Assembly: GCA_964580075.1 (NCBI GenBank)
Contig: CAZOJL010000002.1
Span: 6,034-70,033, forward strand
Length of the DNA: 64,000 nt
Source of the DNA: an uncultured Akkermansia sp.
GTDB lineage: Bacteria > Verrucomicrobiota > Kiritimatiellia > RFP12 > JAAYNR01
Direction: 5' to 3'
Positions 5,522 through 51,291 of the stretch are shown in pieces; position 1 is the first letter of the stretch, and every line of letters starts with the position of its first letter. The notes beneath the pieces were generated by a model. That model had not been told where the DNA came from. It did no database searches and was given only the letters and a program-made list of their open reading frames with translations. Both the position numbers and the translations under genes were made by a program.

Positions 5522-5894
5522 CCTATTGAGGCGCTTTCAAAACCTCTGGTTTGTGCAAGCGAAGGGTTCAGGGTTATCAGGGACGAGGTTTATCAGGGTC
5601 GGGCCTTCTGTGCCACCCGCACCTGGGCGCGTGGAGTCGTTACAACCTAAGCCCTCGACCCTCTCCGACCACCTGCCCATCCTCTGCGACGTGCGAATCC
5701 CGGGCGAGGCGTGAGGGTTGGCGTGAGGGTTGCCTACGCGCCCGTTGGCAGCAATTCTAACACTGGCAGCCGCTATCGGGATCCAAATCGGGATCGGGAC
5801 CGAAATTGACGAGAATGCAGGGAATTCGACCCCGACCCCGAACCCGATAGCGATTTCGACTGGTCGGATGTGCTCAAAATTAGAATGGCTGTGA
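5522..5894. repeat. Composite repeat-rich intergenic element. It carries a 'cttgcacaaacc..gaggttttg' module, GGGTT(C/A) tandems, a GGCGTGAGGGTT x2 direct repeat, a conserved 46-mer (5749-5794) and a GATCGGG/CGACCCCG inverted repeat.
   Basis: Seen directly. The 46-mer cagcaattctaacactggcagccgctatcgggatccaaatcgggat recurs at 49997-50042 (reverse complement, identical) and in degenerate form at 35952. The 5526-5575 module recurs inverted at ~16030-16070. Confidence 0.7.
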
Positions 5895-5923
5895 TTGACC
5901 CCAGCTCGTGGGTGGTCTATACT
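5895..5923 (+). promoter_or_regulatory. Putative sigma70-type promoter for ftsH (TTGACC -17 nt- TATACT)
   Basis: Near-consensus -35 and -10 hexamers with a 17-nt spacer, ~30 nt upstream of the ftsH start region. Confidence 0.35.
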
Positions 5924-8072: not shown

Positions 8073-8945
8073 ATGGGCTGTGGCAGAGAGACAATGTGGC
8101 GGTGTGACGGACGGACGGTCAGCTTGGACCGGCCGATGGTCATGGGTATTGTCAATGTTACGCCCGACAGTTTTTTCGACGGGGGTTTGTGGGACGGATC
8201 GCCGGATCGTGCGGTTGCCCACGGCGTGGCCCTGCTGGAAGCCGGAGCCGACATGCTGGATATCGGCGGAGAGTCCACGCGGCCCGGTGCGTTCGAGGTG
8301 CCGGTTGATGAGGAACTGAGCCGCGTGATTCCGGTCATCCGCGCGCTGGCCGGCCGGACGCGGGTGCCGTTGGCGGTCGACACCCGGAAGGCGGCGGTCG
8401 CCCGCGCGGCCGTCGCGGCAGGCGCCTGCATCATCAACGACGTCACGGCGCTCGGGGGCGACCCGGCGATGCGGCGGGTGGCGGTCGAGACGGGTGCGGG
8501 CGTGGTGCTCATGCACATGCGTGGCACGCCGCAAACCATGAACGGCCTCGCCGTGTATCGAGATGTCGTGCGGGAGGTGGGTGACGAATTGCGCGCGGCG
8601 GTTGACGCCGCCCGCGCGGCCGGCGTGGCGGCGGAGGCGATTCTGGTCGATCCTGGATTCGGCTTTGCCAAAGAGGTGGAGCATAACGTCGCGCTGCTTC
8701 GCGAGCTGGGTCGGCTGACGGCGCTGGCGCCGGTCATGGTCGGACTGTCGCGCAAGCGGTTCATCGGGGCCCTGACCGGGCGATCGCAGCCGGCTGAGCG
8801 GATGGCCGGGAGCGTCGCCGCCGCGATGCTCGCCGTGCAGCGCGGCGCATCCGTCGTGCGGGTTCACGATGTGCGGGAGACCGTGGACGCGTTGCGTGTT
8901 CTGGTTTCGGTTGCACCGGGAGAGAGGCAGGCCGTAAAATGCTGA
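8073..8945 (+). CDS. folP: Dihydropteroate synthase
   Basis: Pterin-binding motifs (GIVNVTPDSFFDGG, LDIGGESTRPG, VDPGFGFAK). Conserved position after ftsH, as in the E. coli ftsH-folP-glmM arrangement. Confidence 0.85.
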   Translation: MGCGRETMWRCDGRTVSLDRPMVMGIVNVTPDSFFDGGLWDGSPDRAVAHGVALLEAGADMLDIGGESTRPGAFEVPVDEELSRVIPVIRALAGRTRVPLAVDTRKAAVARAAVAAGACIINDVTALGGDPAMRRVAVETGAGVVLMHMRGTPQTMNGLAVYRDVVREVGDELRAAVDAARAAGVAAEAILVDPGFGFAKEVEHNVALLRELGRLTALAPVMVGLSRKRFIGALTGRSQPAERMAGSVAAAMLAVQRGASVVRVHDVRETVDALRVLVSVAPGERQAVKC

Positions 8946-15935: not shown

Positions 15936-15960
15936 CGAAACCCTTGGAAGCGCCGAGAAT

Positions 15961-35838: not shown

Positions 35839-35939
35839 AGGCAGAAAAACTCGTTTCTTTGCGGCGGCGGGGATGAGCGACCCAGGAACGCGGGAACGCG
35901 CGTAATGGAACCCTATTTTATCGGGGACCGGGCGAATGT

Positions 35940-36300
35940 CAACCCAGGTAACAGCAATTCTCATTATGAGGCGATTGGGTCATCGGGGTCGGGGTCGGGG
36001 TCGGTATCGGAATCGGAGTCGAAATTCCGTTGGATTTATCCTAAAAAGGGCAGAAGACTGTGAGACTGTGAGACTGTAAGGATTGGGAGGCAATCGGTTA
36101 TGCAAACGGGATCTGTTCACCATTGGGTGCGTGCGAATAAATCTGTAACCTGTTCATTTTCAACCTCATAGCCTTACAGTCTTACAGCCTATAGCCGTTT
36201 TTAGGTTTATCGATACCGATACCGATACCGACCCCGACGCCGATGGCCCCATCTCCAAAATGAAGGCGCATTTTTCACACGGTTCTGGAAAATTATGCTA
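35940..36300. repeat. MITE-like nested inverted-repeat element. It has a degenerate copy of the 46-mer head (35952-), outer inverted repeats GGGGTCGGGGTCGGGGTCGGTATCGG / CCGATACCGATACCGATACCGACCCCG (35987-36016 and 36211-36243), and inner inverted repeats CTGTGAGACTGTGAGACTGTAAGG / CCTTACAGTCTTACAGCC.
   Basis: Seen directly. The arms are reverse complements of each other and enclose a 23-codon mini-ORF with a GGGAGG Shine-Dalgarno (36099-36170). G4-forming tract at 35987-36005. Confidence 0.65.
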
Positions 36301-36410
36301 TTGTTTGCATGCAACCGTTTTCTTCTAAATCCTTTGCGCCGCATCTTGCACCAAGCCCGATGAGGTCTATTGTCACTGAAGCAACGTACCGCGCTGGTTT
36401 CTGCCACCAC

Positions 36411-39272
36411 ATGACACTAACACCATACCACGCCAAGTATTACGCCTACGAACTCACTCGCCGCTGTTCATCCGACAGCATGGAGAAGTTCGCCGGCGTT
36501 GTCGCCGGCGCCCAGGTCGATCTGAACCCGCACCAGGTCGACGCAGCCCTATTCGCTTTCAACTCGCCACTCTCCCGCGGGGCACTCTTGGCCGACGAAG
36601 TAGGCCTGGGCAAGACCATCGAGGCTGGCATCGTCCTCTCCCAGAAGTGGGCCGAACGCAAACGCAAGATCCTCATCATCACACCGGCCAGTCTCCGCAA
36701 ACAATGGTTCCAGGAGATGGAGGACAAGTTCTTCCTGCCGTCCTGCATTCTCGAAACCCGATCTTACAACGAAGCTATCCGCCAAACCAGCCTACGCCCC
36801 TTCGAGGTGCCTGGAAAACTCGTCATCTGCTCCTACCAGTTCGCCCGCGCGAAAGCATCGGACGTTCAGGCCGTTCCCTGGGATCTCGTAGTCATTGACG
36901 AAGCCCACCGCTTGCGCAACGTCTACAAACCCAACAACGTCATAGCCAACACCCTGAAACAGGCCCTCGCACACGCGCCGAAACTCTTGCTCACCGCCAC
37001 CCCGCTTCAGAACTCCCTTCTGGAACTCTTCGGCCTCGTTAGTTTCATTGACGAACACGCCTTCGGCGACCTCCCGAGTTTCCGCGAACAGTTCGTCAAC
37101 CTCGACCAGCGCCAAGTTTTCGACACCCTCAAGGTCCGCCTCAAACCCATCTGCCAGCGCACCCTTCGCCGCCAGGTTACATCCTACATTCCCTTCACCA
37201 AGCGCCACCCGTTGTTGGAGGAGTTCACGCCAGAAGAGAGCGAGGATCGCCTCTACAACCTCGTCTCGGAATATCTGCAACGCGACAACCTGTTCGCCCT
37301 TCCACCAAGCCAGCGCTCCCTGATGACCCTCGTTCTTCGGAAACTCCTGGCCTCATCCACCTTCGCCATTGCCGGTGCCCTGAACACCATTTCCAACCGC
37401 CTGAAACTGACGCTCCACCGAAAATCGCCGGAACAATCCCTCGAAGAGGAACTGGACCAAGATTACGAAACCCTCGACGAAACTGCCGACGAATGGCAGG
37501 ACGAAAGCGCCGCCGCCGACCTCACAGATGACGACCGCTCCGCTTTGAAACAGGAAATCGCAGACCTCGACGCCTTTGCCACCCTCGCCACCTCCATTCA
37601 CCACAATGCCAAGGGCAAGGCGCTGGTCAAGGCGCTCACTGTCGCCTTTGCAAAGGCTGCCGAACTCGGCGCCCCCCAGAAAGCCGTCATCTTCACAGAA
37701 TCCCGCCGCACCCAGGACTACCTGCAACGCGTTCTCTCAGACAGTCCGTTTGCCGAAGGGATCGTTCTGTTCAACGGATCAAACACGGACGAAGGTTCCC
37801 GCCAGATATACAGCGCCTGGCACGACAAGCACCAAGGAACCGACCGTGTCAGCGGCTCCCGCACGGCCGACATGCGTTCCGCCCTCGTGGACTATTTCAG
37901 AGATCAGGGCCGGATCATGATTGCCACCGAGGCCGGCGCCGAAGGCATCAACCTCCAGTTCTGCTCCCTGATTGTGAACTACGACCTGCCCTGGAACCCC
38001 CAACGCATCGAACAGCGTATCGGCCGCTGTCACCGCTACGGTCAAAAACACGATGTCGTGGTGGTCAATTTCCTCAATCGTAAAAACGAGGCCGACCAGC
38101 GCGTCTACCAACTTCTGGCCGAGAAATTCAAACTCTTCGAGGGTGTTTTCGGCGCCAGCGATGAAATTCTCGGCACCATCGGCGCAGGCGTGGACTTCGA
38201 GAAACGCATCGCCGGCATCTACCAACGTTGCCGCAAGCATGAGGAGATCAGGACCGCATTCGATCAACTCCAACTGGAACTCAACCTCGAAATCAACGAG
38301 GCCATGACCCAGACCCGGCGCAAACTCCTCGAGAACTTCGACGATGAGGTCCGCGAAAAGCTAAAGGTGCGTGACGAAACATCAAAGGCCGTTCTCACCC
38401 GCTTCGAATACACCCTCATGCGCCTTACCCGCCACGAACTGGAGGGCCACGCCGAGTTTATCGATGACGGTTCCTTCCGCCTCACAACCGCCCCCTTTCC
38501 GGCCTTTTCGGGTGTCATCCCTCTTGGCCTGTACGAACTCCCGCGCCGTTCCGGCGAAGCGCACACCTACCGCCTCAGTCATCCTCTCGCCGTCGAGATC
38601 GTCAAGCGCGCCAAGGAACGCGACCTACCGATTTCCGAAGTCTGTTTCCGGTACAGCGAACATGAAGGCAAAGTCACGGCGCTAAAGCCGCTGGTCGGCC
38701 GCTGCGGATGGCTTTCCGTCGCACAGTTCACGGTCGAATCCCTCGATCAGGCCGAAGACCACCTGATACTCGTTGCCACCACAGACGATGGCGCATTGAT
38801 TGACGAAGAAGCCGCCCGCCGCTTGTTTTCCCTGCCAGGTGCCCCCGTCGGCCAGGAGACCACCGCACCCCCACCACCGGCCCTGCAAGACCTTGTCCAG
38901 CAGCGCCAGACTGCCATCACACGCACCATCTCCGAACGCAACGCTCGATTCTTCGAGACCGAGGCCACCAAACTGGAAAACTGGGCCGACGACGTGAAAC
39001 TCGGCCTCGAACGCGACATCAAGAACCTTGACCGACAAATCCGGGAAACCCGACGTGCGGCCACCGTCGCACTCACCTTAGAGGAGAAACTCGCCGGCCA
39101 GAAACAGATCAAAGCCCTTGAATCCCAGCGCAGCGAGAAACGCCGCTCCCTGTTCGAAGCACAGGATCAGGTGGACCGCCAACGCGCAGAGTTCATCTCG
39201 ATAATCGAAGGGAAACTGAAACAACAGACCGACCTCTCAACCGTCCTGACACTTCAATGGAGACTCGAATAA
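36411..39272 (+). CDS. SNF2-family (RapA/HepA-like) DEAD/DEAH helicase with a C-terminal coiled-coil extension
   Basis: SNF2_N motifs (LLADEVGLGKTIEAG, LVVIDEAHRLRN), helicase C domain (LIVNYDLPWNPQRIEQRIGRCHRYGQK), and a ~400-aa C-terminal region with coiled-coil character. Start uncertain; the ORF opens at 36309. Confidence 0.8.
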   Translation: MTLTPYHAKYYAYELTRRCSSDSMEKFAGVVAGAQVDLNPHQVDAALFAFNSPLSRGALLADEVGLGKTIEAGIVLSQKWAERKRKILIITPASLRKQWFQEMEDKFFLPSCILETRSYNEAIRQTSLRPFEVPGKLVICSYQFARAKASDVQAVPWDLVVIDEAHRLRNVYKPNNVIANTLKQALAHAPKLLLTATPLQNSLLELFGLVSFIDEHAFGDLPSFREQFVNLDQRQVFDTLKVRLKPICQRTLRRQVTSYIPFTKRHPLLEEFTPEESEDRLYNLVSEYLQRDNLFALPPSQRSLMTLVLRKLLASSTFAIAGALNTISNRLKLTLHRKSPEQSLEEELDQDYETLDETADEWQDESAAADLTDDDRSALKQEIADLDAFATLATSIHHNAKGKALVKALTVAFAKAAELGAPQKAVIFTESRRTQDYLQRVLSDSPFAEGIVLFNGSNTDEGSRQIYSAWHDKHQGTDRVSGSRTADMRSALVDYFRDQGRIMIATEAGAEGINLQFCSLIVNYDLPWNPQRIEQRIGRCHRYGQKHDVVVVNFLNRKNEADQRVYQLLAEKFKLFEGVFGASDEILGTIGAGVDFEKRIAGIYQRCRKHEEIRTAFDQLQLELNLEINEAMTQTRRKLLENFDDEVREKLKVRDETSKAVLTRFEYTLMRLTRHELEGHAEFIDDGSFRLTTAPFPAFSGVIPLGLYELPRRSGEAHTYRLSHPLAVEIVKRAKERDLPISEVCFRYSEHEGKVTALKPLVGRCGWLSVAQFTVESLDQAEDHLILVATTDDGALIDEEAARRLFSLPGAPVGQETTAPPPPALQDLVQQRQTAITRTISERNARFFETEATKLENWADDVKLGLERDIKNLDRQIRETRRAATVALTLEEKLAGQKQIKALESQRSEKRRSLFEAQDQVDRQRAEFISIIEGKLKQQTDLSTVLTLQWRLE

Positions 39273-39457
39273 TGCATAAAGAAACCCCGTCAGAACAACT
39301 CGCCGCCAAGATCGCCGACCGCCTAGTCAAAGAAGGTCTCTTGCCCCCGGATGCCGCCACCAGACTCAAACCCAAACTGGCCCAAGGAACCGTTACCCAA
39401 GATGACTGGAGACTTCCAATAGAACTGGGAGACAAGAAGAAGGAGGCTGCAAAATGA
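39272..39457 (+). CDS. Small hypothetical protein (~61 aa), translationally coupled between the SNF2 helicase and the ATPase
   Basis: TAATG overlap with the SNF2 stop and ATGA overlap with the ATPase start. Lys/Glu-rich, no recognisable domain. Confidence 0.35.
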   Translation: MHKETPSEQLAAKIADRLVKEGLLPPDAATRLKPKLAQGTVTQDDWRLPIELGDKKKEAAK

Positions 39458-41784
39458 GCATTCCAAGTCTAGTGAGCAATCCAGGTCTTCGGCAACTCAC
39501 CGTCGAGAACCTCCGCGGAGCTGTGGTCCCGTTCACGCTCCCTTTTGAGAAGAACAAGAAACTCACAATCGTCTACGGAGAGAATGCCACAGGCAAGTCA
39601 ACCATTTGCGATGCATTCGACTTTCTCGGGAAAGGAAATGTCGGCTCATTGGAAAACCGCGGACTGGGCCGCTCCGAAAGATACTGGCCGTCTATTGGAA
39701 AACCCGCCGGCGCTGTTTCGGTGACACTCGAAACCACCGACCTCGCCAAGTGCTGCGCAAAGATCGGAACAGGAGGTGTCACAGTCACGCCCCCGATCCC
39801 ACGTCCACGGGTCGAAGTGTTGCGCCGCAAACAAATACTCAAACTGATTGAGGCAACCGAGAGCGAACGCTACACGGAAATCCGCCGCTTCATTGACGTG
39901 TCGGCCGTGGAAACATCGGAAGGCACCCTTAACCAGTTGATCAAAGACCTGAACGCCAACCGCAACATTGCCGCAGCACGGTTAACAGAGAACCTAGACG
40001 CACTGACCAACTACTGGAACGCGGCCAGTCAACCAGGAAGCAATGCCCTGACATGGGCAACCACAGAAGCAAAACGAAACCAAACCACTTTAGACAAGGA
40101 GGCGGCCGCCCTGGCTTCACTTCAAGCCGCCTATGCCAGACTCACAGACTACCCGGCGCAACTCACGGCAACCACCCACACCCAGAATGCTGCAAAGGAG
40201 GCGGATGATGCCGCACAGGTCGCCGCAAAACAGTGCGCCCAAACGATTGCTGCAGACGCTGATGAGGTAATCGGCGTACTCCAAGCTGCCCAGACGTACC
40301 TGCACATACACCCGACACCCAAGGTCTGCCCTCTCTGCGAGAGCGCCGAAAAGACGGCAGGTCTGAACCAACGTATTTCACAACGCCTTGGTGCATTCGC
40401 GGCCCTCCAATCGGCACAGGGTCAAGTGAAGACTACCGCCACCGCCGTCCAACGCGCGGAGGCCCAACTCGAAGTCCTGAAGGCCGACGCAAAACGTAAC
40501 GCCGAAACATTTGAGAAAGCACGCACCGACTTTGCCTGGCCCGCGGACATACCACTACCAACATCACCCGCCCCCACGGACATCACCGCACTTGCGACAT
40601 GGCTTGCCGATACCGGTCCCCTGCCTGCCCAATGGAAACAAGCCGAAACCACCCGCCTGGACAAAAAACAGTTCATTGCCTCATTAAATGGGGCACTGAA
40701 AACATACAACGAGAATGTCAATACACAGAAGGAACTGGACGTTCTCCTGCCGAAACTCGATCACGCCTTGAAGATCGTCATTGAGGAACGCCGTGACTTC
40801 ACAGGAAAGATACTGGCGAACATCGCCACAGAAGTCGGCCGCATGTACGAACTCGTTCACCCAGGCGAAGGCCTGAGCAAGATCAGCTTGCAACTCGATC
40901 CCAAGAAACGTGCCTCTTTAGGAATTGGAGCCCCATTCGGCACCATGAAGGAGACCCCGCCGCAAGCCTACTTCAGCGACTCGCACCTCGACACACTAGG
41001 CTTGTGCATTTACTTGGCACTCACCGGACGAGATGAACCGGAGAAGATCATTCTCATAATTGACGACGTACTTGCGAGCGTTGACGAACCCCACGTTCAA
41101 CGACTCATCGAGATGTTGTACGACGAGACGGCAAAGTTCCGGCATTGTCTGATCACCACCCATTACCGCCCATGGAAAGAAAAGTTCCGATGGGGTTGGC
41201 TCAAGAATGCGCAATGCCAGTTTATCGAGTTGAAGGACTGGACGACAACCGAAGGCATCACACATGCCAACAGCGTGCCGGATATTGACCGCCTAAAGTC
41301 ACTTATAGCAGAGAAATCACCTGATTCCCAACTCGTATGCTCCAAAGCCGGCGTGATGTTGGAAGCGGCACTCGAGTTCCTGACCTTACTGTACCAATGC
41401 CGAGTTCCCCGAAAACCCGGCGATACATACACAGTCGGCGACCTCCTACCGGCGATTGACGACAAACTGCGCAAGTCCCTGCAAGTAGAGTGCGCCGTGA
41501 CAGACAAAGCCGGGACAGTCACATACCAAACGAAACAACTCGGCCCAATATTCGATGAACTGGACCGAATCTTCCAACTCCGGAATGTCTTCGGCTGCCA
41601 CTTCAACGAGATATCCTTCACCCTTCTGAACTCGGATGCCCTGACGTTTGGCAAGAAGGTGCTGGAGTTGATCGAAACCCTCGCCGATCCCGATGCCGGA
41701 TGGCCCCGCAGCGACAAGTCCGGCAACTACTGGGCGACCGCCAAGGAAACACGCCGGTTGCACCCCTTAAAGAAACCCAAGTGA
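39454..41784 (+). CDS. ABC/SMC-like (AAA_15/AAA_23-type) ATPase with a long coiled-coil insert and a C-terminal domain of unknown function
   Basis: N-terminal Walker A (GENATGKST) and a ~350-aa Ala/Gln-rich coiled coil. ABC-signature-like FSDSHLDTLGL, Walker B/D-loop IILIIDDVLASVDEPH, and H-loop ITTH. Confidence 0.75.
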   Translation: MSIPSLVSNPGLRQLTVENLRGAVVPFTLPFEKNKKLTIVYGENATGKSTICDAFDFLGKGNVGSLENRGLGRSERYWPSIGKPAGAVSVTLETTDLAKCCAKIGTGGVTVTPPIPRPRVEVLRRKQILKLIEATESERYTEIRRFIDVSAVETSEGTLNQLIKDLNANRNIAAARLTENLDALTNYWNAASQPGSNALTWATTEAKRNQTTLDKEAAALASLQAAYARLTDYPAQLTATTHTQNAAKEADDAAQVAAKQCAQTIAADADEVIGVLQAAQTYLHIHPTPKVCPLCESAEKTAGLNQRISQRLGAFAALQSAQGQVKTTATAVQRAEAQLEVLKADAKRNAETFEKARTDFAWPADIPLPTSPAPTDITALATWLADTGPLPAQWKQAETTRLDKKQFIASLNGALKTYNENVNTQKELDVLLPKLDHALKIVIEERRDFTGKILANIATEVGRMYELVHPGEGLSKISLQLDPKKRASLGIGAPFGTMKETPPQAYFSDSHLDTLGLCIYLALTGRDEPEKIILIIDDVLASVDEPHVQRLIEMLYDETAKFRHCLITTHYRPWKEKFRWGWLKNAQCQFIELKDWTTTEGITHANSVPDIDRLKSLIAEKSPDSQLVCSKAGVMLEAALEFLTLLYQCRVPRKPGDTYTVGDLLPAIDDKLRKSLQVECAVTDKAGTVTYQTKQLGPIFDELDRIFQLRNVFGCHFNEISFTLLNSDALTFGKKVLELIETLADPDAGWPRSDKSGNYWATAKETRRLHPLKKPK

Positions 41785-41843
41785 CACCTCTACTGTTCAC
41801 AAAACCCGGACTTAACGACCGACCGGAAGGAACCAAACGCACT

Positions 41844-43646
41844 ATGAGCCCCTTAACTCCGGCATACCTGGCCATACTTAAGAAACATCTCGCTGACAGG
41901 TACGTTGTTCACCTGCCACCACTCGCAAAGAACAGCAAAAACTCCGATGAAGTGGAGAAGAAAAACCTTTCGCGGGCTTTCAGCGCCTTCACATTGCATC
42001 ACCTTACTGGCGTTTCTGAAAAAGAAGCCGCAGAGTCAGTTGTGGACGATTTTGAAGACGTTGGTTTGGACGCCGTGTATTACTTCGCACCAACAGAGAC
42101 ACTTTTCCTGGTACAGTCCAAACTGAAAGCATCGGAAGAATTCAGCCAAGACGAAGCACTGGCGTTTTGTCAAGGCATACGCAAACTGATCAAAGAGGAC
42201 TTCAACGGGTTCAATGAACACGTGACACGACGCCAGACGGAAATCGAAGGCGCATTGGAACTATGCCGTGAGATCCAACTTGTTGTCGCACACACCGGTT
42301 CCGGCATCAGCAAACATGCTCGAACCGCTTTAGACGAACTCCGCCAGGATGAGACCCACGACGAACTACGGTTCACCCCCCCAATCCTGGATTTTGATGC
42401 AAACAAAGTAGTAAACGGCCTGCAAGGAAGTCATGCCTACAAACGCGTCGACACGAAACTTGTTGTCAGGAACTGCAAACACATTGCCGAACCAAGATCG
42501 ACATACTTCGGTCTAGCCAATATCATAGACTTGGTCGCACTGCACAAGACACATGACAAGGCACTCTACGACAAGAACATCCGGACATTTCTCGGTCACG
42601 AGACAGACGTGAATAAGGCTATCCAGAAGACATTAGCCGAGAAACCTGACCACTTTATCTACCTGAATAACGGCGTCACAGTGCTCTGCCAACAGATCGA
42701 CCCGAAGGACACTAACAAGAAGGAAGGCAGGCGCTTGGTAATCAAGGGGTTTTCCGTGGTGAACGGCGCCCAGACGATTGCGTCGTCCGCAAAGTATGTG
42801 GCCGATAACCCGGGTGCAAATATAGATTTTGCCCGCGTTTTGATCACACTGATTGAAGCTGCCGCTGACGGCGACTTTGGGAAGTCCGTCACCAGAGCCC
42901 GTAATCATCAGAATGAAGTCAAACAGTCCAACTTCGCTGCCCTTGACGACGGTCAGGAGAGACTTCGCAGGGATTTGGCGCAACTTGATATTCAGTACGC
43001 ATACAAGGCAGGAAGAACCGAAGGACCAGATGATCCCAACCGAATTCAGATTGAGGAAGCAGTTCAGGCATTGGCGCTACTTCAGGGCGACCCGCGATAC
43101 GCCGTCCGGTTGAAGAAGCAACCCGCTGACCTATTGAACACGGAGTCCGACCAGTACAAGGAACTTTTCGGTTCATCGCTCACTGCTTTCCAACTACTCA
43201 ATGCGGTTCTTGTAAATCGTTACGTCCAACGCCGGATTGGAGAAGAAGTCGGGAGAACGGGCGGCCAGGAAAGACTCGTTTACAAGCACGGGAACCACGT
43301 GATCGCATGGATACTCGCCAAGTGTGTAATGAAGGCCATTAACGAACCGGCACGCATAGACAACGCTAAACTCAACACTTTACTTAGCGTGCCGTTCGAT
43401 GAAATCAGACAAAAGCAATGGGACAAGGCCCAACCAGCCCTTGCGCAACGCGGACCGTTGTCTTTGTTCCGCAACCAAACCCATACCATCCCATTGATGC
43501 AACACCTCATGATCGACTTCTACGGTCTGACAAACGATCCAGTCATAGGACACAAACTCGCACAACAGCAACCTGGCGACCTCTATCCAACGCACCTCTT
43601 CGCGTACCTGATTCAACGGGCGCCCCAGATCGGGGGACTCTCATGA
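41844..43646 (+). CDS. AIPR-family (abortive infection phage resistance) protein
   Basis: N-terminal AIPR signature (SRAFSAFTLHHL..VDDFEDVGLDAVYYF..LFLVQSKL) and the central motif FIYLNNGVTVLC..GFSVVNGAQT characteristic of PF10592-type proteins. GGAAGG Shine-Dalgarno before the ATG at 41844; ATGA overlap with the downstream mod. Confidence 0.7.
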   Translation: MSPLTPAYLAILKKHLADRYVVHLPPLAKNSKNSDEVEKKNLSRAFSAFTLHHLTGVSEKEAAESVVDDFEDVGLDAVYYFAPTETLFLVQSKLKASEEFSQDEALAFCQGIRKLIKEDFNGFNEHVTRRQTEIEGALELCREIQLVVAHTGSGISKHARTALDELRQDETHDELRFTPPILDFDANKVVNGLQGSHAYKRVDTKLVVRNCKHIAEPRSTYFGLANIIDLVALHKTHDKALYDKNIRTFLGHETDVNKAIQKTLAEKPDHFIYLNNGVTVLCQQIDPKDTNKKEGRRLVIKGFSVVNGAQTIASSAKYVADNPGANIDFARVLITLIEAAADGDFGKSVTRARNHQNEVKQSNFAALDDGQERLRRDLAQLDIQYAYKAGRTEGPDDPNRIQIEEAVQALALLQGDPRYAVRLKKQPADLLNTESDQYKELFGSSLTAFQLLNAVLVNRYVQRRIGEEVGRTGGQERLVYKHGNHVIAWILAKCVMKAINEPARIDNAKLNTLLSVPFDEIRQKQWDKAQPALAQRGPLSLFRNQTHTIPLMQHLMIDFYGLTNDPVIGHKLAQQQPGDLYPTHLFAYLIQRAPQIGGLS

Positions 43647-45397
43647 CCAGACACCTCAAACTCGAACTCACCTGGATCGGCAAGGAGAACCGGCCCCGCC
43701 TGGAGCCGCGCATCCTCCTCGAAGATCCGGAGAAGTCGTATCACGCCGCACATCGGGTGAAGGAATGGCCGCAAGAGAACGCAAAAAACACAAAAGGCTC
43801 AGACTCTTTGCGCTCTCTGTGTTCTTTCGCGGCTAAGAATCCCTCCGATGTCGGCGATCTCTTCGACAACCGCCTCATCTTCGGCGACAACCTCCTCGCC
43901 CTCAAGGCACTTGAGCAAGAGTTCACCGGGAAAATTAGGTGCGTATTCATTGACCCACCCTACAACACGGGTAGCGCATTTACACACTACGACGATGGAG
44001 TTGAGCACTCTCTTTGGCTTTCTCTCATCAGAGATCGACTGGAGATGTTACGTCAACTCCTTGCCGATGACGGTTCTCTTTGGATCACTATTGACGACAA
44101 TGAATCTCATTATCTTAAGGTTTTGTGCGACGAAGTGTTTGGAAGGCAGAACTTCGTTGCCAATGTGGTCTGGCAAAAAAAATCGTCACCGCAACCAAAC
44201 GCGGTTTGGCTTTCCGACAGTCACGACCACATCCTTGTTTACGCGAAAAATAAATCTATATGGCGTCCAAATATGTTGGAGCGCAGTGTTGAAGCGAATT
44301 CGCGTTACAAGAATCCAGACAACGATCCCCGTGGTATGTGGACGTCTGGTGACTGCACAATCAGCTTGACCGGCGGGCAACGCGGAGCGCAGTTCGCTAG
44401 GACCGGTGTTTCGGAGAACATCTATGAAATTCAAACGCCGTCTGGGCGCAAGGTGTCTCCTCCACCTGGAACATGCTGGCGTTTTAGTAAGAAGCGATAT
44501 GAAGAACTGGTAAAAGAATACCGGATTTATTTTGGTGACACCGGCAATAACGTTCCAAGATACAAGAGATTCCTTTCAGAAGTTCAGGAAGGTATTGTCT
44601 GCATGACAGTGTGGCTTCGAACAGAAGTGAGCGATAATCAGGACGCGAAGCGAGAAGTAATGGTATTCAATTCCGAGCAGGTGTTTTCTACACCGAAACC
44701 CGAAAGGCTTTTACAACGCATCGTTGAGTTAGCGTCGAATCCCGGTGACTGGGTGCTCGACTCCTTCGCCGGTTCCGGCACTACGGGTGCGGTCGCTCAC
44801 AAGATGGGCCGGCGCTGGATCATGGTGGAACTGGGCGAGCATTGCCACACACACATCATTCCCCGACTCAAAAAAGTTATTGACGGTGAAGATTCTGGCG
44901 GCATCACGAAGTCCGTGGATTGGAAAGGCGGCGGTGGGTTCCGCTACTACCGGCTCGCGCCGTCGCTGCTGGAAAAGGACAAGTGGGGGCAGTGGGTCAT
45001 CAGCAAGGAGTTTAATGCCGCCATGTTGGCCGAGGCGGCCTGTAAACTGGAAGGGTTCACCTACGCCCCGAGCGACTCTGTCTATTGGCAACACGGGCAC
45101 TCCACCGAACGTGATTTCATCTATGTGACCACCCAGAATCTGAACGCCGCCCAACTTGCGCAGTTGAGCGATGAAGTCGGCCCGGATCGCACCTTGCTCG
45201 TGCTTTGCGCCGCCTTTCGCGCACCACGTGGCGACGCCGCCGAACGCTACCCGAACCTCACGGTGAAGAAGATTCCCAAACAGGTGCTTTCCCGTTGCGA
45301 ATGGGGGCATGATGATTACAGTCTAAACGTGGAGAACTTGCCCAAGGCACCGCCGAAGTTGGGGCAACAGGATCTGTTTGCGGAGGTTGGCAAATGA
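43643..45397 (+). CDS. Type III restriction-modification DNA methyltransferase (Mod subunit, N6-adenine/N4-cytosine class)
   Basis: LKLELTWIGKENRP N-terminus typical of Type III Mod, catalytic DPPYN motif, and a SAM-binding LDSFAGSGTTGAVA motif separated by a large target-recognition region. Confidence 0.85.
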   Translation: MTRHLKLELTWIGKENRPRLEPRILLEDPEKSYHAAHRVKEWPQENAKNTKGSDSLRSLCSFAAKNPSDVGDLFDNRLIFGDNLLALKALEQEFTGKIRCVFIDPPYNTGSAFTHYDDGVEHSLWLSLIRDRLEMLRQLLADDGSLWITIDDNESHYLKVLCDEVFGRQNFVANVVWQKKSSPQPNAVWLSDSHDHILVYAKNKSIWRPNMLERSVEANSRYKNPDNDPRGMWTSGDCTISLTGGQRGAQFARTGVSENIYEIQTPSGRKVSPPPGTCWRFSKKRYEELVKEYRIYFGDTGNNVPRYKRFLSEVQEGIVCMTVWLRTEVSDNQDAKREVMVFNSEQVFSTPKPERLLQRIVELASNPGDWVLDSFAGSGTTGAVAHKMGRRWIMVELGEHCHTHIIPRLKKVIDGEDSGGITKSVDWKGGGGFRYYRLAPSLLEKDKWGQWVISKEFNAAMLAEAACKLEGFTYAPSDSVYWQHGHSTERDFIYVTTQNLNAAQLAQLSDEVGPDRTLLVLCAAFRAPRGDAAERYPNLTVKKIPKQVLSRCEWGHDDYSLNVENLPKAPPKLGQQDLFAEVGK

Positions 45398-46617
45398 AGA
45401 AGAACCCCGCGCTTTATGAACGTGTCCGGCAGATTCTAGAATCTGCCCGGTCAACCGTGGCCCGGTCGGTGAACACGACCCAGGTGGTAGCGAATTGGCT
45501 GATCGGCCAGGAGATTGTGGAGGAAGAGCAAAAGGGAAAGCGCCGGGCTGACTACGGGAACGAGTTGATCATCGACCTGGCAAAACGATTGACGGCGGAT
45601 TTTGGAAACGGGTACTCCAAGGACAATCTCTTCTGGTTCCGCCGATTGTATCAAGGTTATCCGGAACTGCTGGCCCGGCAGAAATTTGACGCACTGCGTC
45701 AAATTTCCGACGCAGTGCCTCGGAAATCTACAGGCACAGGGACTTTTGCAGCATTTCCGTCAAAAACGCGCACCGTGCATAGTTGTTCTGTTGCGGAGAT
45801 TGGCTACGCAGTGCGTAGCCAATCCTGGAAACCCGGCCAACTCCATCCAACCCTCTCCTGGACCCACTACCGGACACTACTGCGCGTGGATAAACCCGAG
45901 ACCCGCGCCTTTTATGAAATCGAGGCAATCAAGAACAATTGGGGGGCGCGGGAACTGGAGCGGCAAATTTGCAGCCTGTTCTATGAACGACTGGCGTTGA
46001 GTCGGGACAAAAAGGGATTGATGCGTCTGGCGACAAAAGGGCAGGTTGTTCAGAAGCCAACGGATGTGTTCAAGGACCCAGTGGTCATGGAATTTCTGGG
46101 GCTTCCGGAATCGCCGAGACTGACCGAAACCGATCTGGAGACCGCCTTGATCAACAATCTCCAGTCATTTCTGCTGGAACTGGGCAAGGGGTTCGCCTTT
46201 GTGGCGCGACAGGGCCGACTGACACTGGACGGCGATCATTTTTACGTGGATCTTGTTTTCTATCATACGATCCTGAAGTGCTACGTGATCATTGATCTCA
46301 AGACCGGCAAACTCACACATCAGGACCTTGGGCAACTTCAACTGTACGTCAACTACTACGACCGGGAGAAACGCGCCACGGGCGATAATCCAACATTGGG
46401 GCTGATTCTCTGCGCCGAGAAGAACGACACCGTGGTGCGGTACACCTTGGGCAAAGACCAGAAAAAGCAGATATTCGCCAGCCGTTATCAGATGTACCTG
46501 CCGACCGAGGCCCAACTGCGGGCCGAGATACGCCGGGAAGTCCGATTGTTGCAAGCGCCAGAGATTGCAACGAAAAAACGCATGGAGCGTAAAGGACGAA
46601 TTGCTGCCCTAAGTTGA
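45394..46617 (+). CDS. DUF1016/YhcG-family protein with a C-terminal PD-(D/E)XK nuclease fold
   Basis: YhcG N-domain (LSWTHYRTLL..RAFYEIEAIKNNWGARELERQI) and C-terminal PD-(D/E)XK signature (DGDHFYVDLVFYH..YVIIDLKTGK). ATGA overlap with the mod stop. Confidence 0.7.
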   Translation: MKKNPALYERVRQILESARSTVARSVNTTQVVANWLIGQEIVEEEQKGKRRADYGNELIIDLAKRLTADFGNGYSKDNLFWFRRLYQGYPELLARQKFDALRQISDAVPRKSTGTGTFAAFPSKTRTVHSCSVAEIGYAVRSQSWKPGQLHPTLSWTHYRTLLRVDKPETRAFYEIEAIKNNWGARELERQICSLFYERLALSRDKKGLMRLATKGQVVQKPTDVFKDPVVMEFLGLPESPRLTETDLETALINNLQSFLLELGKGFAFVARQGRLTLDGDHFYVDLVFYHTILKCYVIIDLKTGKLTHQDLGQLQLYVNYYDREKRATGDNPTLGLILCAEKNDTVVRYTLGKDQKKQIFASRYQMYLPTEAQLRAEIRREVRLLQAPEIATKKRMERKGRIAALS

Positions 46618-46710
46618 ATACAGTTCATCTGGACAATTTACCATGTCCACGTCAAAACCGGAGCAGATCGAATGGCTATGAATGACATAACCGCACCCGA
46701 AGACCAACAA

Positions 46711-46787
46711 CCACTTCGCGCCTTCGCGTCTTCGCGTGAAATCCCAACGCAGACAGTCTCACGCGAAGGCGCGAAGGCGCGAAGTGG
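46711..46787. repeat. 29-bp near-perfect inverted repeat (CCACTTCGCGCCTTCGCGTCTTCGCGTGA / TCACGCGAAGGCGCGAAGGCGCGAAGTGG) with a 19-nt loop, immediately 5' of the GxxExxY start. A direct copy of the left arm lies 3' of the gene at 47172-47196.
   Basis: Seen directly; the arms are reverse complements with 1-2 mismatches. Confidence 0.7.
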
Positions 46788-46791
46788 GGAG

Positions 46792-47223
46792 ATGAACATC
46801 GAAGAGGTTTCGGCGATCATCGTGGATTGTGGTTACAAATTGCATGTTGAGGTAGGACCTGGCCTTTTGGAAAGCGTGTATGAAGTGGTCCTGGCCAAGA
46901 TGCTGGAACAACGCGGTTTGCGCGTGCGACGACAGGTTCCCGTGCCGATTGAATTAATGGGGTTGACGTTTGACGAAGGGTTTCGCGCGGATTTGATTGT
47001 CCATGATCGGGTGCTGGTGGAGTTGAAGTCGGTAGAAAACCTGGCCCCTGTTCACGGCAAGCAAGTCCTCACTTATCTCCGCCTTTTAAAGATGCCGCTA
47101 GGCTTGTTGATTAATTTTAGCGCCGCAACCTTCAAGGATGGCGTAAAGCGCATCGTCAACCAACATCATGATTTCGCGTCTTCGCGTCTTCGCGTGAACC
47201 AAGCCCTTTCGGAGAATCCATGA
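46792..47223 (+). CDS. GxxExxY-family protein (small PD-(D/E)XK-like nuclease-fold protein)
   Basis: GPGLLESVYE motif, plus DLIVHDRVLVELKSV and LLINF motifs that match the GxxExxY family consensus. GGGGAG Shine-Dalgarno upstream. The ORF continues past the family core to an ATGA overlap with res; the upstream ORF portion (46672-) is the translated hairpin. Confidence 0.65.
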   Translation: MNIEEVSAIIVDCGYKLHVEVGPGLLESVYEVVLAKMLEQRGLRVRRQVPVPIELMGLTFDEGFRADLIVHDRVLVELKSVENLAPVHGKQVLTYLRLLKMPLGLLINFSAATFKDGVKRIVNQHHDFASSRLRVNQALSENP

Positions 47224-49916
47224 AGCCCCAAGTCAACGCCATTGCCGGACGACTGAGTCTGCGCCAGCCCCAACGCCGCGCGTTGGAAATCCTCGACCGC
47301 GTTACGGAGATCGTCCCGCCCAAGAAGGGCGCTGACATCGCAGCCGCCTTGGCGGTCATCCGGTCCGAGTTTCCAACCGTCACCGATTTTGAGCGCGACT
47401 TTCCCTCCCTCTGTTTTGCCCTTGCCACTGGCGTTGGCAAGACGCGCCTCATGGGCGCTTTCATCACCTATCTCTATCAGGCATACGGCATCAACAACTT
47501 TTTCGTCATGGCTCCGAATCTGACGATCTACAACAAGTTGATCACGGACTTCACGCCCAACACCTCCAAGTATGTTTTCAAGGGAATCGCCGAGTTTGCC
47601 ACGGAGCCGCCGGAAATCATCACCGGCGACAACTACGAGGCCAAGGCAGGCACCTTGTTTGACGAGTTGATCCGCTGCCGGGTGAACATCTTCAATATCT
47701 CGAAGATCAACTCCGAAGTCCGAGGCGGCAAGTCGCCGCGCATCAAACGCCTCTCCGAGTACATCGGCGAGAGCTATTTCGAGTACTTGGCCAATCTGCC
47801 CGACCTTGTTCTCGTCATGGATGAATCGCACCGCTACCGGGCCAGCGCGGGCGTGCGGGCAATCAACGAACTCAAGCCCGTCCTGGGGCTGGAACTCACG
47901 GCCACGCCGTTTGTCGAGACCGGGAAGGGGCCTGTAGCGTTCAAGAACGTTATTCAGGATTACCCCCTTGGCAAGGCCATGGCCGATGGCTTTGTAAAGG
48001 AACCGGCCGTTGTCACGCGCAAGAATTTCAACCCGGCCGGCATGACGCCCGAAGCCGTGGAGCGCATGAAACTGGAGGACGGCGTCCGCCTGCACGAGAG
48101 CATCAAGGTGGAACTGGAGACGTACGCGCGCGAAACGGAAAACCGCCTCGTAAAACCGTTTGTCCTGGTCATCGCCCGCGATACCACGCACGCCAAGCAA
48201 CTCGTTGACCTGCTCCAATCCGAAACCTTCTTCGATGGCCGCTACAAGGAGAAGGTCATCCAGGTCGATTCCAGCAAGACCGGCGCCGAAGAAGACGAGA
48301 TGGTTGAGCGCTTGCTCAAGGTCGAGCACACGGACGAACCAACCGAAATTGTGATTCACGTCAACATGCTCAAGGAGGGGTGGGACGTCACCAACCTCTA
48401 CACCATCGTCCCTCTTCGTGCCGCCAATGCCCGCACCCTCATCGAGCAGTCCATCGGCCGCGGCCTGCGCCTGCCATACGGCAAGCGCACAGGCGTCACC
48501 AGCGTGGATCGCCTGAACATCGTAGCCCATGACAAGTTTCAGGAGATCGTGGACGAAGCCAAGAAACCCGGCTCTGCCATCCATCTCCAGCAGGTCATCC
48601 TGGCCGACGACACACTTAGCCAGAAGACCGTCACCATGGTCTCCCAGTCCCAACTCGCCAATCGCCTGGGCCTGACTGTGGATCAACCGACACCCAGCAC
48701 GCTACAACCCGAGGCAGCGGCCAAGCCGATATTTACACAGCCGGAAGAACAGAAGATCGCGCAACTCACCTACGAGGCCATCAAGAGGCTCGAAAGTCAG
48801 CCCACGGCCGTGCCGGGCGTCTCATTCCTGTCGAACCCGGACGTGCAGGCAGCCATTCAAAAGGAAGTGGCAAGCCGGTATCAACCCCCGGTTCAGATGG
48901 AGATGGATGTCGTCACCGCGAAGCCAGACATTGCGGCCATTGTTGCCGCCACGGCAGAACTGGTCATCCAGCAGACTATCGATATTCCCCGAATTCTCGT
49001 GGTGCCCGCCGGCAAGGTCCAATCCGGCTTCAAGCCATTTGTCCTGAAACTGGATACGCTCAATTACCCGCCGGTCTCCGAAGAACTTTGGGCCAAACAC
49101 CTGCGCACCGATCAGGTTGATGTCATCGCCATGGGCAAGGGCGGTACTGAGGAAGAGCGCCTGGAAGACTACGTTGTTTCCGGCTTGGTTGATTTCGACG
49201 ACATCTCATACGACGCGCACGCAGATCTTCTGTACGATCTGGCAGGTCAGGTTGTGCGCCATCTCCGGTCCTACCTCAAGGAAGAAGCGGAGACTCGAAA
49301 GGTTCTCCGGTGTTATCAGCGGGACATCGCCCGGTTTGTCCATGCCCAGATGCAGGAGCACTACTGGGAAGCGGCTACCTCTCTCGACGTGACGATCACC
49401 AAGGGGTTCACCGAACTCAAACGAAGCGCCTACACCACCGATGCCCGAGATCCGGTCAAGGATTATCGGTATTCACTGGCGGACAAGAGCAACATGCCCA
49501 AGCACCTCTTCGGCGGTTTCACAAAATGCCTCTATCCGGTCCAGAAGTTTCAGTCCGACCCGGAGCGCAAGATGGCTGTGATCCTCGAACGCGAATCCGA
49601 CAAATGGTTCCGGCCGGCCAAGGGCCAATTCCAGATCTACTACAAGTCCGGCGCCGAGCAACCCGAATATCAGCCAGACTTCGTGGCCGAGACGGCCGAC
49701 GTCATCTACATGCTCGAACCCAAACGCCGCGACGAGTTGCAGGATGCCGACGTGCAGGCCAAGAAAGCCGTTGCTGAAATCTGGTGCCAGCACGCCACCG
49801 CACACGCCAAGACCTACAACGGCAAGCCCTGGCAATACCTCCTCATCCCCCACGACGCCATCGCCGACAACATGACGCTCGAAGGGCTCGCCGCCCTGTT
49901 CAAGGACAACGAATGA
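47220..49916 (+). CDS. Type III restriction enzyme Res subunit (SF2 helicase-nuclease)
   Basis: Helicase motif I ALATGVGKTR, motif II LVLVMDESHRY, a helicase C region, and a C-terminal endonuclease region. ~900 aa, positioned with mod. Confidence 0.85.
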   Translation: MKPQVNAIAGRLSLRQPQRRALEILDRVTEIVPPKKGADIAAALAVIRSEFPTVTDFERDFPSLCFALATGVGKTRLMGAFITYLYQAYGINNFFVMAPNLTIYNKLITDFTPNTSKYVFKGIAEFATEPPEIITGDNYEAKAGTLFDELIRCRVNIFNISKINSEVRGGKSPRIKRLSEYIGESYFEYLANLPDLVLVMDESHRYRASAGVRAINELKPVLGLELTATPFVETGKGPVAFKNVIQDYPLGKAMADGFVKEPAVVTRKNFNPAGMTPEAVERMKLEDGVRLHESIKVELETYARETENRLVKPFVLVIARDTTHAKQLVDLLQSETFFDGRYKEKVIQVDSSKTGAEEDEMVERLLKVEHTDEPTEIVIHVNMLKEGWDVTNLYTIVPLRAANARTLIEQSIGRGLRLPYGKRTGVTSVDRLNIVAHDKFQEIVDEAKKPGSAIHLQQVILADDTLSQKTVTMVSQSQLANRLGLTVDQPTPSTLQPEAAAKPIFTQPEEQKIAQLTYEAIKRLESQPTAVPGVSFLSNPDVQAAIQKEVASRYQPPVQMEMDVVTAKPDIAAIVAATAELVIQQTIDIPRILVVPAGKVQSGFKPFVLKLDTLNYPPVSEELWAKHLRTDQVDVIAMGKGGTEEERLEDYVVSGLVDFDDISYDAHADLLYDLAGQVVRHLRSYLKEEAETRKVLRCYQRDIARFVHAQMQEHYWEAATSLDVTITKGFTELKRSAYTTDARDPVKDYRYSLADKSNMPKHLFGGFTKCLYPVQKFQSDPERKMAVILERESDKWFRPAKGQFQIYYKSGAEQPEYQPDFVAETADVIYMLEPKRRDELQDADVQAKKAVAEIWCQHATAHAKTYNGKPWQYLLIPHDAIADNMTLEGLAALFKDNE

Positions 49917-49954
49917 GAGCGAGATCTAAAGAATCTCCTTGATGTGGAGCGCAT

Positions 49955-50055
49955 TCTTTTTCGTCGATTTCGGTCCCGATCCCGATCCCGATCCCAATCC
50001 CGATTTGGATCCCGATAGCGGCTGCCAGTGTTAGAATTGCTGGTATGGGCAGTGT
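49955..50055. repeat. Reverse-orientation copy of the intergenic repeat family: (GATCCC)n tandems plus the exact 46-mer at 49997-50042
   Basis: Reverse complement of 49997-50042 equals 5749-5794 at 46 of 46 positions. Confidence 0.75.
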
Positions 50056-50085
50056 GTGGCATTGCCTTCAGTCCGAATCTTCGCT

Positions 50086-51291
50086 ATGATCTCCCGCACA
50101 TACGCCATGGCACGTGATCAAACAAATCAAACGGAGCGGCTCGAGAAGTTTCTCGTCCGCCTGATCCAGCAGCCGGGGGCCGACCAGGGACACACCGGGT
50201 CGATCCGGCTGTTGCTGGCGTTTTTGAAAGGGCTGGCGCATCTTTTCCGCGGCGCGGTGCAGACGCGCCTGTGTTTTTATGAGGCGGGTATCTTGCGCCG
50301 TTATCCCCTGGGGTGCCAGGTGATCAGCGTGGGGAACATCACGGCGGGCGGGACGGGCAAGACCCCGGTGGTGGAGATCTTCGCCCGCGAACTTCATAAG
50401 TCGGGACGGAAAGTCGCCATCCTCAGCCGTGGCTACCGCAAGAAGGAATTGCCGTGGTATCAGCGGGTCTTCAGAGAAACCCTCGAACCGCCGCGGGTCG
50501 TGAGCGACGGTCACCACCTGTTGCTCGACAGTGAGATGGGCGGGGACGAGCCCTACATGCTGGCGTCCAACCTGCCGGGCGTGGTGGTGCTGGTCGACCG
50601 CAACCGCGTCAAGAGCGGGCGTTACGCGATCAAAACGTTCGGGTGTGACACGCTCGTGCTCGACGACGGCTTTCAGTATCAGAAGCTCAAGCACCGGCTC
50701 GAATTGGTGCTGATCGACAAGACCAACCCCTTTGGCAACGGCAATGTTCTGCCGCGCGGTGTATTGCGCGAACCGGTGCGCAACCTGAATCGGGCGGACT
50801 TTATCTTCATCACCAAGTCTGACGGGAAGTCGGATGCGCTGCGCGCCCGGATCCGCGAGTTGAACGACCACGCCGAAATCATCGAATGCTGTCATCGGCC
50901 CCAATACCTGCGCAACGCTTACAGCCAGGAGACGTTGCCCCTTTCGTGGTTGGACGGCAAGAAGGCCGCCGCCCTCTCCGGGATTGCGGTGCCGCAAAGT
51001 TTCGAAGGTTTTCTGCGCGGCATGGGGGCGCGATTGGTGGCGTGCGACCGCTTTGCCGACCATCACCGGTACGAGGCGCAAGAGATCATTGACGCCGTGA
51101 ACCGGGCGGATGAACTGGGGGCCTGCGCGTTGATCACGACCGAGAAGGACGCCGTACGGCTGCCGCGGCTGGCGAGTTCGGCCGTGCCGGTCTACTACTT
51201 GCGGGTGGAGATCGAGATCCTCTCCGGGGCCGAGAATTTCCACGAAGCGGTCCGGCATATCTGCACGCACGGGGCGCGGAAAGGGGCGTAG
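50086..51291 (+). CDS. lpxK: Tetraacyldisaccharide 4'-kinase
   Basis: [16 protein letters not shown]-loop and SRGYRKK motifs. Start ambiguous (50056, 50086 or 50107). Confidence 0.75.

Follow-up and report, generated by a model that had tools for sequence, protein, structure and literature searches.

Repeat sites in the window

The window analysed in this study is a 64,000-nt stretch of contig CAZOJL010000002.1 from an uncultured bacterium of the Kiritimatiellia, and the subject of this report is a 46-nt intergenic sequence (CAGCAATTCTAACACTGGCAGCCGCTATCGGGATCCAAATCGGGAT) which occurs in it exactly twice, at 5749-5794 on the plus strand (site 1) and at 49997-50042 on the minus strand (site 2). 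The complete identity of the two copies (46/46, one being the reverse complement of the other), noticed in a preliminary description of the window, was confirmed: there are no mismatches, 100 dinucleotide-preserving shuffles contained no match to the 46-mer, and the similarity of the two copies reaches 54 nt at 96%. A third site starts at 35952 (site 3), and, as described, each of the three sites faces a gene start, namely ftsH (site 1), lpxK (site 2) and spoU/SNF2 (site 3). The 46-mer had been taken for the whole repeat; it is the left third of a palindrome of about 143 nt (5749-5891), here named A1, the right end of which had been overlooked. A1 is most probably a bacterial MITE (miniature inverted-repeat transposable element), and works like one. 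Besides the right half of A1, the preliminary description missed the nested structure of site 3, the half-element nature of the copy at site 2, and a defence island lying between sites 3 and 2.

Independent JGI and ENA assemblies contain all three sites without a single base difference, so that the sites are not assembly artefacts. Independent contigs (comparison loci and contigs are labelled L plus a number) cover site 1 (L094-L096), the left junction of the defence island (L104, L105 and L107) and its right junction (L111-L118), and an artefact at the island junctions was ruled out by the identity of the three left and eight right contigs. LpxK, FtsH and SpoU place the organism's relatives among metagenome-assembled genomes (MAGs) that carry the labels Kiritimatiellia, Kiritimatiellae or Lentisphaerae; for LpxK, the identity of the nearest matches is 89-92%. 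The closest LpxK relative (92%, L014) was deposited as 'MAG: Akkermansia muciniphila', which is probably a taxonomic mis-assignment, because its neighbours and all other close matches are Kiritimatiellia.

Anatomy of the A1 element

The two A1 copies of the window have the following parts.

5749..5891, plus strand: full-length A1, a 143-nt imperfect palindrome, aligned with the full copies L011 and L008 (90-96% identity)
5749..5760, plus strand: left terminal inverted repeat of A1, CAGCAATTCTAA
5772..5813, plus strand: G-rich left arm of A1 with period 6, by direct reading GCTATC GGGATC CAAATC GGGATC GGGACC GAAATT GACGAG
5827..5862, plus strand: C-rich right arm of A1 with period 6, CGACCC CGACCC CGAACC CGATAG CGATTT CGACTG
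5880..5891, plus strand: right terminal inverted repeat of A1, TTAGAATGGCTG, with one mismatch (TTAGAATTGCTG in other copies)
49952..50042, minus strand: half A1, comprising left terminus, head and a G-rich arm lengthened by three hexamers

From left to right, A1 consists of CAGCAATTCTAA, a head, a G-rich hexamer arm, a loop of about 20 nt, a C-rich hexamer arm and TTAGAATTGCTG. The terminal inverted repeats are 12 nt long (CAGCAATTCTAA...TTAGAATTGCTG); those of L011 match perfectly, whereas those of the window copy differ at one position. The G-rich tandem tracts reported earlier are real, but their units are hexamers (GGGATC, GGGGTC, GGTATC and others), not heptamers. Across the A1 copies, the G-rich arm is built of GGGATC, CAAATC, GGGACC and GAAATC, and the C-rich arm of CGACCC, CGATAG and CGATTT; the number of hexamers in the arms varies from copy to copy, as does the unit content of the right arm. 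The left and right arms pair, and because the units of the G-rich arm face those of the C-rich arm, a single strand forms a long imperfect hairpin. As DNA, the window copy gives a long hairpin on both strands (z -3.8 and -4.3). The z scores for the folding of single-stranded DNA range from -2.3 to -4.3 on either strand among full A1 copies, and from -2.3 to -8.6 among all full copies, including those of the A2 family described below.

The copy at site 2 stops at the loop sequence GAATGC, that is, at the centre of the palindrome, and its right arm and right terminus are absent. This half element, which is identical in eight independent contigs, does not fold on its own (z +0.1).

Dispersal of A1 and of its termini

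Metagenomes were scanned for further copies with the exact 24-nt head of A1 as the query, which returned 10 contigs representing six further A1 loci, none overlapping the window. The exact head is present at two loci in the window and at these six loci in the same metagenome series, and has no match in 185,579 GTDB representative genomes. All copies are intergenic. Outside the window, L011 and L008 carry full A1 copies; the copy at L004 has no right terminus, those at L007 and L005 break off after about 50 nt and about 26 nt, respectively, and that at L006 is a 52-nt internal deletion in which both termini are retained. In addition, no match was found for A1 by blastn in plasmid and phage collections, for the A1 head and the A2 core in IMG/VR, or for the A1 and A2 nhmmer profiles in 79 other lpxK loci of relatives.

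The hexamer tracts are limited to the lineage of the window and a relative of about 90% identity (15 tracts vs 0-1 in shuffles), and the remaining 79 lpxK loci contain none. Compared with the hexamer tracts or the interiors of A1 and A2, the terminus has a wider distribution. In L045 there is a 71-nt element with 18-nt termini; L026, with an LpxK 74% identical, has a solo end upstream of lpxK; and L122 contains a 133-nt element with the same termini and a GC-rich interior without hexamers. Shared ends with unrelated interiors are the expected appearance of a family moved in trans by one transposase. Generally, the members are small: A1 is 143 nt long, A2 117-131 nt and the variants 52-133 nt.

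The A2 family and the nested element C

Site 3 has a compound structure.

35952..36039, plus strand: left part of A2, CAGCAATTCT followed by CATTATGAGG and a (GGGGTC/GGTATC/GGAATC)n arm up to the loop
36040..36205, plus strand: element C, a 166-nt MITE inside the A2 loop, with terminal repeats CCTAAAAAGGGC and GCCGTTTTTAGG
36206..36265, plus strand: right part of A2, a duplicated TTTAT, a (GATACC/GACCCC)n arm and then CTCCAAAATGAAG

Site 3 had been presented as a third copy of the 46-mer that keeps its first 11 nt. The shared start is real, but it extends over 10 nt (CAGCAATTCT), and the site (35952-36265) belongs to a related, distinct family, A2, which has its terminus in common with A1 only over these 10 nt. 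Each of the two nhmmer profiles, A1 and A2, finds the other family (E 1e-8 to 1e-10), and in its right half A1 is similar to an A2 arm. In the A2 subfamily of the window, the outer right terminus of 10 nt is missing. At 3403-3519 of L004 there is a paralogue without interruption, and A2 is also present in other species, at 9856-9986 of L016 (both 10-nt termini, DNA fold z -8.6) and at about 5822-5937 of L098.

A2 loops without an insertion read TTTTAT. In the window, the loop contains element C, which has arms of period-8 units (AGACTGTG) and is flanked by a 5-bp duplication, TTTAT, at 36035-36039 and 36206-36210. Other copies of C are found at 7548-7687 of L006 (97% identity, duplication TTCAA) and at 2265-2428 of L008 (88%); both target duplications of C are A/T-rich. 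The fold of the whole compound region of A2 and C has a z score of -7.6. By its position within A2, C shows that small elements with defined termini are indeed mobile in this genome. L008 also contains, beside its A1 and C copies, a tandem repeat of about 113 nt (98% between units) at 1884-2192.

Probable mobility of the elements

These observations make it probable that the 46-mer is the left terminus and subterminal head of a non-coding, palindromic and non-autonomous MITE-like element of about 143 bp. A1 is non-coding and shorter than 500 bp, and has terminal inverted repeats and dispersed copies. The earlier suggestion of a miniature mobile element is thus supported by terminal inverted repeats, at least eight dispersed loci in one population, deleted or truncated derivatives and same-terminus relatives elsewhere, and further by flanking direct repeats at two copies: CAGACAACGCC (11-13 bp) in L008, and GGTTTGGAC (9 bp) around the 71-nt element of L045. 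Orthologous promoters without any element, in the more distant relatives L103 (ftsH) and L015 (lpxK), point in the same direction, with flanks too diverged to define a precise empty site. The sequences themselves show the anatomy, the dispersal, the termini, these two duplications, the one nesting, the occurrence of elements at some orthologous sites and their lack at others in different species, and the setting beside promoters and the island. The A1 terminal sequence CAGCAATTCTAA and the Kiritimatiellia host are new, and a literature search found no paper linking MITEs with Kiritimatiellia; the kind of element is known selfish DNA.

Such an element would be recognised at the shared termini and moved by a transposase encoded elsewhere in the genome, and about 9-13 bp of the target would be duplicated on insertion; judging by this length, our guess is an IS4-like partner. 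The same termini would also serve A2 and the elements with unrelated interiors in other Kiritimatiellia. Copies would pile up in the short stretches that separate the end of a transcription unit from the -35 box of the following one. Recombination or breakage at the palindromes may then lead to truncated copies, mismatched flanks and changes of gene order, as well as to the gain of accessory DNA, such as the defence island between A2 (35952) and the half A1 (50042). Of this scheme, the transposase, ongoing activity and the role in rearrangement are what we infer.

Several points weigh against a mobile element of this kind. Flanking duplications exist at just two of about eight terminus-bounded copies and differ in length (9 vs 11-13 bp); they are missing at the two best A1 copies (window and L011), and also at L016 and L122. 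It is possible that duplications were lost by recombination between copies, which would fit the synteny-breakpoint context described below. Because target duplication is seen at only part of the copies, we use the wording 'MITE-like'. About 1.4 Mb of sequence searched contained no transposase with matching ends and no pair of termini at the distance of an insertion sequence. Within the population, every contig of each site is identical and there is no filled/empty polymorphism; the claim that the element was recently active is plausible because the copies are near-identical, but found no support in this comparison. Different members are equidistant from the -35 box at the ftsH and lpxK promoters across species, which random transposition would not predict. 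In addition, the use of the head as the query means that the findings 'head best conserved' and 'truncated copies keep head' are biased by the route of discovery.

Promoters and gene order beside the elements

Sigma-70-like promoters were predicted beside all three sites; here and below, promoters are consensus matches only.

5895..5923, plus strand: sigma-70-like ftsH promoter, TTGACC-17-TATACT, 3 nt past the right A1 terminus
35915..35942, minus strand: sigma-70-like spoU promoter, TTGACA-16-TAAAAT, with 11/12 consensus positions, 9 nt past the A2 terminus
50062..50090, plus strand: sigma-70-like lpxK promoter, TTGCCT-17-TATGAT, 19 nt past the A1 terminus

A predicted promoter is also adjacent to the element at L011, L004, L007, L005 and L016. 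The ftsH promoter is kept in relatives with and without an element: it is preceded by A1 in the window (gap 3 nt), by an A2-type element in the relative with 90% FtsH identity (gap 4), and by nothing in the 82% relative. Likewise, the lpxK promoter, which is kept in L016 and L015, has upstream of it either the half A1 at 19 nt, a full A2 at 20 nt or a solo end at 18 nt, or no element at all, and the sequence between terminus and promoter at lpxK is not conserved among the three lineages. This placement may reflect either old insertions with turnover of the interior, or targeted insertion. Conserved gene blocks start at both promoters (ftsH-folP-dacA-ybbR-ftsK and lpxK-murJ-...), and because the genes upstream of both promoters differ in every relative examined, the elements lie at synteny breakpoints.

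The defence island

Sites 3 and 2 bracket a region of different composition.

36309..49916, plus strand: defence island of 13.6 kb between two inward-pointing elements, supported by GC content, GC skew and Pfam matches

According to Pfam, the island encodes an SNF2 helicase, a 61-aa open reading frame (ORF), an SMC-like AAA ATPase, AIPR, a type III N6/N4 methylase, YhcG, PDDEXK_3 (GxxExxY) and ResIII. Its GC content is 0.50-0.59 with a reversed GC skew, compared with 0.62-0.70 in the surroundings. The island is absent from 80 lpxK loci of relatives, and its SNF2 is 74-75% identical to homologues in Proteobacteria. We conclude that the island was acquired horizontally. A related island, with an SNF2 91% identical (L126/L127), carries other cargo (DUF2130 and SIR2-HerA) between SNF2 and the methylase, which suggests that the SNF2 island is a modular system with a variable middle. 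We read the elements as markers of a rearrangement hotspot, which they may also promote, rather than as the ends of the island itself.

Alternative explanations

The terminus or head could have been co-opted as a protein-binding or UP-like module at a fixed distance from the -35 box, or the insertion machinery could be steered towards promoters; the repeat would in that case be more than selfish DNA, acting as a regulatory or insulating module. An outward sigma-70-like site lies 3-20 nt past the CAGCAATTCT terminus at 8 of 10 independent loci, as compared with 0.3-0.4% of background positions, and at the ftsH and lpxK promoters different members keep near-equal gaps (3/4 and 19/20/18 nt) across species, with gaps clustering at 18-20 nt. 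However, the naive proximity statistic (P about 1e-15) had to be downgraded under a stricter null in which each element is placed randomly within its own short spacer, and proximity is then marginal (Fisher P=0.033). Since the elements nearly fill the short spacers, proximity is mostly explained by the spacers. The 18-20 nt cluster has a corrected P of 0.43 on sites passing the scan rule and is significant only when sub-threshold promoter-like sites are included; a promoter may be faced by either end of the element; and many close relatives have no element at these promoters (L014, L015 and L103). Moreover, the predicted promoters serve unrelated genes (FtsH, LpxK, SpoU, two ABC ATPases, DUF4838 and HTH-SNF2). 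On balance, we consider the module or guided insertion unlikely. The protein-binding site proposed earlier finds no coherent regulon among the flanking genes, while co-option of the terminus near promoters may have occurred. Slightly broader is the tentative and rather doubtful proposal that elements with the CAGCAATTCT terminus are placed relative to promoters and not randomly, because transposition is targeted to a fixed distance from the -35 box (about 3-9 or 18-20 nt upstream) or because the terminus was co-opted, that members replace one another at ftsH and lpxK in different species, and that the palindromes would also be favoured points of breakage and entry for accessory DNA such as the defence island. 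The island itself offers a different role for the repeats, as its attachment sites or as the inverted ends of a MITE-bounded composite transposon (35952-50042). The low-GC island is bounded precisely by two inward-pointing elements, the outer 10 nt of which (CAGCAATTCT) are inverted copies; the right-hand element is broken exactly at the palindrome centre; and the island is absent from relatives. Yet attL/attR would be direct repeats, and these are inverted. The two ends of the 14.1-kb unit match over 10 nt, but no duplication flanks it (ACCCAGGTAA vs GTATGGGCAG), as would be expected of a composite transposon. There is no integrase or transposase within the island, the same elements occur at at least eight loci without islands, and the 91% identical SNF2 island in another organism is without such ends, so that we regard this role as most improbable.

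The sequence identity would also be explained by a structured small RNA, a possibility raised in the preliminary description, or by an RNA element acting in cis, for instance a terminator or stabiliser. The full copies have strong hairpin potential, and palindromic repeats of other bacteria are often co-transcribed. Against this, Rfam 15 at the gathering score gave no match in the whole window, and at E<=1 the three sites gave just chance hairpin matches to eukaryotic miRNA precursors (E 0.17-0.31; 20.7 bits vs a threshold of 94). RNAalifold on four A1 and four A2 copies found compensatory changes in 0/36 (A1) and 0/31 (A2) predicted pairs, although the close similarity of the copies makes this covariation test uninformative. 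The fold is equally good on either strand, as a DNA palindrome leads one to expect, whereas the half copy retains the 46-mer without the fold; sites 1 and 2 have no terminator-like T-run; and copies are found in both orientations relative to the flanking genes. An RNA function is hence extremely unlikely, and a search for tRNA and tmRNA genes found none. As a long imperfect palindrome in intergenic DNA, with most copies lacking flanking duplications, A1 might instead belong to the class of repetitive extragenic palindromes (REPs) and their paired form, REPINs, moved by a REP-associated tyrosine transposase (RAYT) of the IS200/IS605-like type, or to another class without duplication. This is very unlikely: A1 forms one 143-nt unit between terminal repeats and is not made up of two 20-40-nt REPs, clean flanking repeats of 9 and 11-13 bp exist at two copies, and the termini begin with CAGC and not with the GTAG or CGTC tags given for the REP superfamilies in PMC3733652. 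The MITE-like element thus remains the preferred explanation.

Further candidates were rejected. A regulon or operator is unsupported, the genes downstream of the copies being functionally unrelated, and inspection of the head (TGGCAG...) for a sigma-54 promoter showed no -12 element. The arms read outward spell runs of Asp-X dipeptides, and copy 2 holds a 29-codon ORF (MWSAFFFVDFGPDPDPDPNPDLDPDSGCQC*); coding was dismissed on account of the lack of a start codon in full copies, a 1-nt indel between copies which breaks any frame, and in-frame stops in related hexamer families, and the long ORFs across L011 and L008 seem to be antisense artefacts. As for an integron attC site, the ends TTCTAAC and GTTAGAA each fail one position of RYYYAAC and GTTRRRY, and there is no integrase or cassette array nearby.

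Comparison with known repeat systems

The named MITE families considered here are Correia of Neisseria, ERIC/IRU of enterobacteria, RUP and Nezha. A1 is similar to bacterial MITEs (reviewed in PMC3184786) in its size range (70-170 bp), terminal inverted repeats, non-coding nature, many dispersed intergenic copies and imperfect hairpin, and also in the truncated or deleted derivatives, the duplications at some copies, the promoter adjacency and the nesting. It differs from them in that most copies have no flanking duplication and the existing ones are long and of varying length (9-13 bp), that the arms are period-6 units varying in number and order, and that no partner insertion sequence was found for A1 in the sequence searched.

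The system also shares features with REP, REPIN and bacterial interspersed mosaic element (BIME) sequences, which are likewise extragenic palindromes gathering between transcription units. REP/BIME elements have been proposed to affect supercoiling, termination and recombination. In contrast to them, A1 is without a tag and without a doublet architecture, and has target duplications at two copies; REPs are 20-40 nt units with GTAG or CGTC tags (PMC3733652).

The G-rich arm recalls other tandem repeats, among which the cyanobacterial short tandemly repeated repetitive (STRR) heptamers are comparable. Quadruplex-forming G-rich tandem repeats of GGGNATC have been described in Xanthomonas and Nostoc (PMC4692102), with a near-identical unit (GGGATC, GGGGTC and TCGGGGT here), a non-coding location, a variable number and a position near the starts or ends of ORFs. 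At least four G-runs with short loops occur in copy 2, where there are six of GGG, and in A2, which has one of GGG and three of GGGG, whereas copy 1 has only three G-runs. Furthermore, the A1 tracts are an arm of a palindrome and not a free-standing array, and because the C-rich arm complements the G-rich arm, any quadruplex would have to compete with the hairpin.

MITE-bounded mobilisation units and composite transposons are a further point of comparison. The arrangement at the defence island is similar to these in that accessory genes lie between two small inverted elements with matching outer ends; it is dissimilar in that there is no flanking duplication and the bounding elements are of different families, one being a half. 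No second copy of the island-bearing unit was found.

Other palindromic repeats, ORFs and assembly effects

Several unrelated palindromic families with arms of 6-, 7- or 8-nt tandem units exist in the lineage. In the window, repeat B is present at 5527-5575 and 16016-16066 as inverted copies of about 50 nt with 90% identity, each followed by (GGGTTCA)n heptamers. An end of B lies 24 nt upstream of a promoter-like site (16091-16119) of a histidine kinase gene, and a (TCGGGGT)4/(CCTGAAC)n hairpin is located at 15960-16028, after a miaB-like gene. More palindromes of period 6 were observed at 1185-1371, 1531-1716 and 2859-3201 of L004, at about 9830-9870 of L014 and at 1775-1817 of L008; the units of these families are (TAATCN)n with 18-nt termini GAATGGCGCTAAGTTAAG, (TCGTCC)n/(CGAGGA)n and (CGACAACGATNN)n, and one such palindrome lies upstream of lpxK in the 92% relative.

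Two small genes are bracketed by repeats. The PDDEXK_3 (GxxExxY) gene of the island is bracketed by (CTTCGCGT)3 arms (46711-46787 and 47173-47195 of the window), and in the 90% relative L098, the two halves of a perfect 27-nt inverted repeat (5384-5410 and 5793-5819), which has the hexamer vocabulary of A1, stand on either side of a 23S_rRNA_IVP gene. This looks like a cassette architecture of a stem plus a small ORF.

Upstream ORFs enter the elements at 3754-3886 of L122, 9856-9867 of L016 and 5417-5926 of L098. The stop codon of spoU in L122 and of the gene upstream of lpxK in L016 (ORF 8710-9867) is the TAA of the terminus (CAG CAA TTC TAA), and in L098 the gene caller runs the 23S_rRNA_IVP ORF right through the element. 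Meanwhile, Logan contigs L108-L110 end within hexamer tracts or the A1 head, and therefore the elements fragment assemblies of this organism.

Implications

The present study adds a MITE-like family to the Kiritimatiellia, a poorly studied and mostly uncultured lineage. The family explains the breaks of short-read assemblies at such sites, where gene callers also extend ORFs into the repeats. Conserved gene blocks have its copies at their edges, and the defence island, itself gained horizontally, lies between two of them. Should the elements promote rearrangement, this would go some way towards explaining the gain of accessory DNA in these genomes. Promoter-phased placement, if true, would mean either that insertion is directed to promoters or that the end of a mobile element has become part of promoter architecture, and such cases are rare in bacteria.

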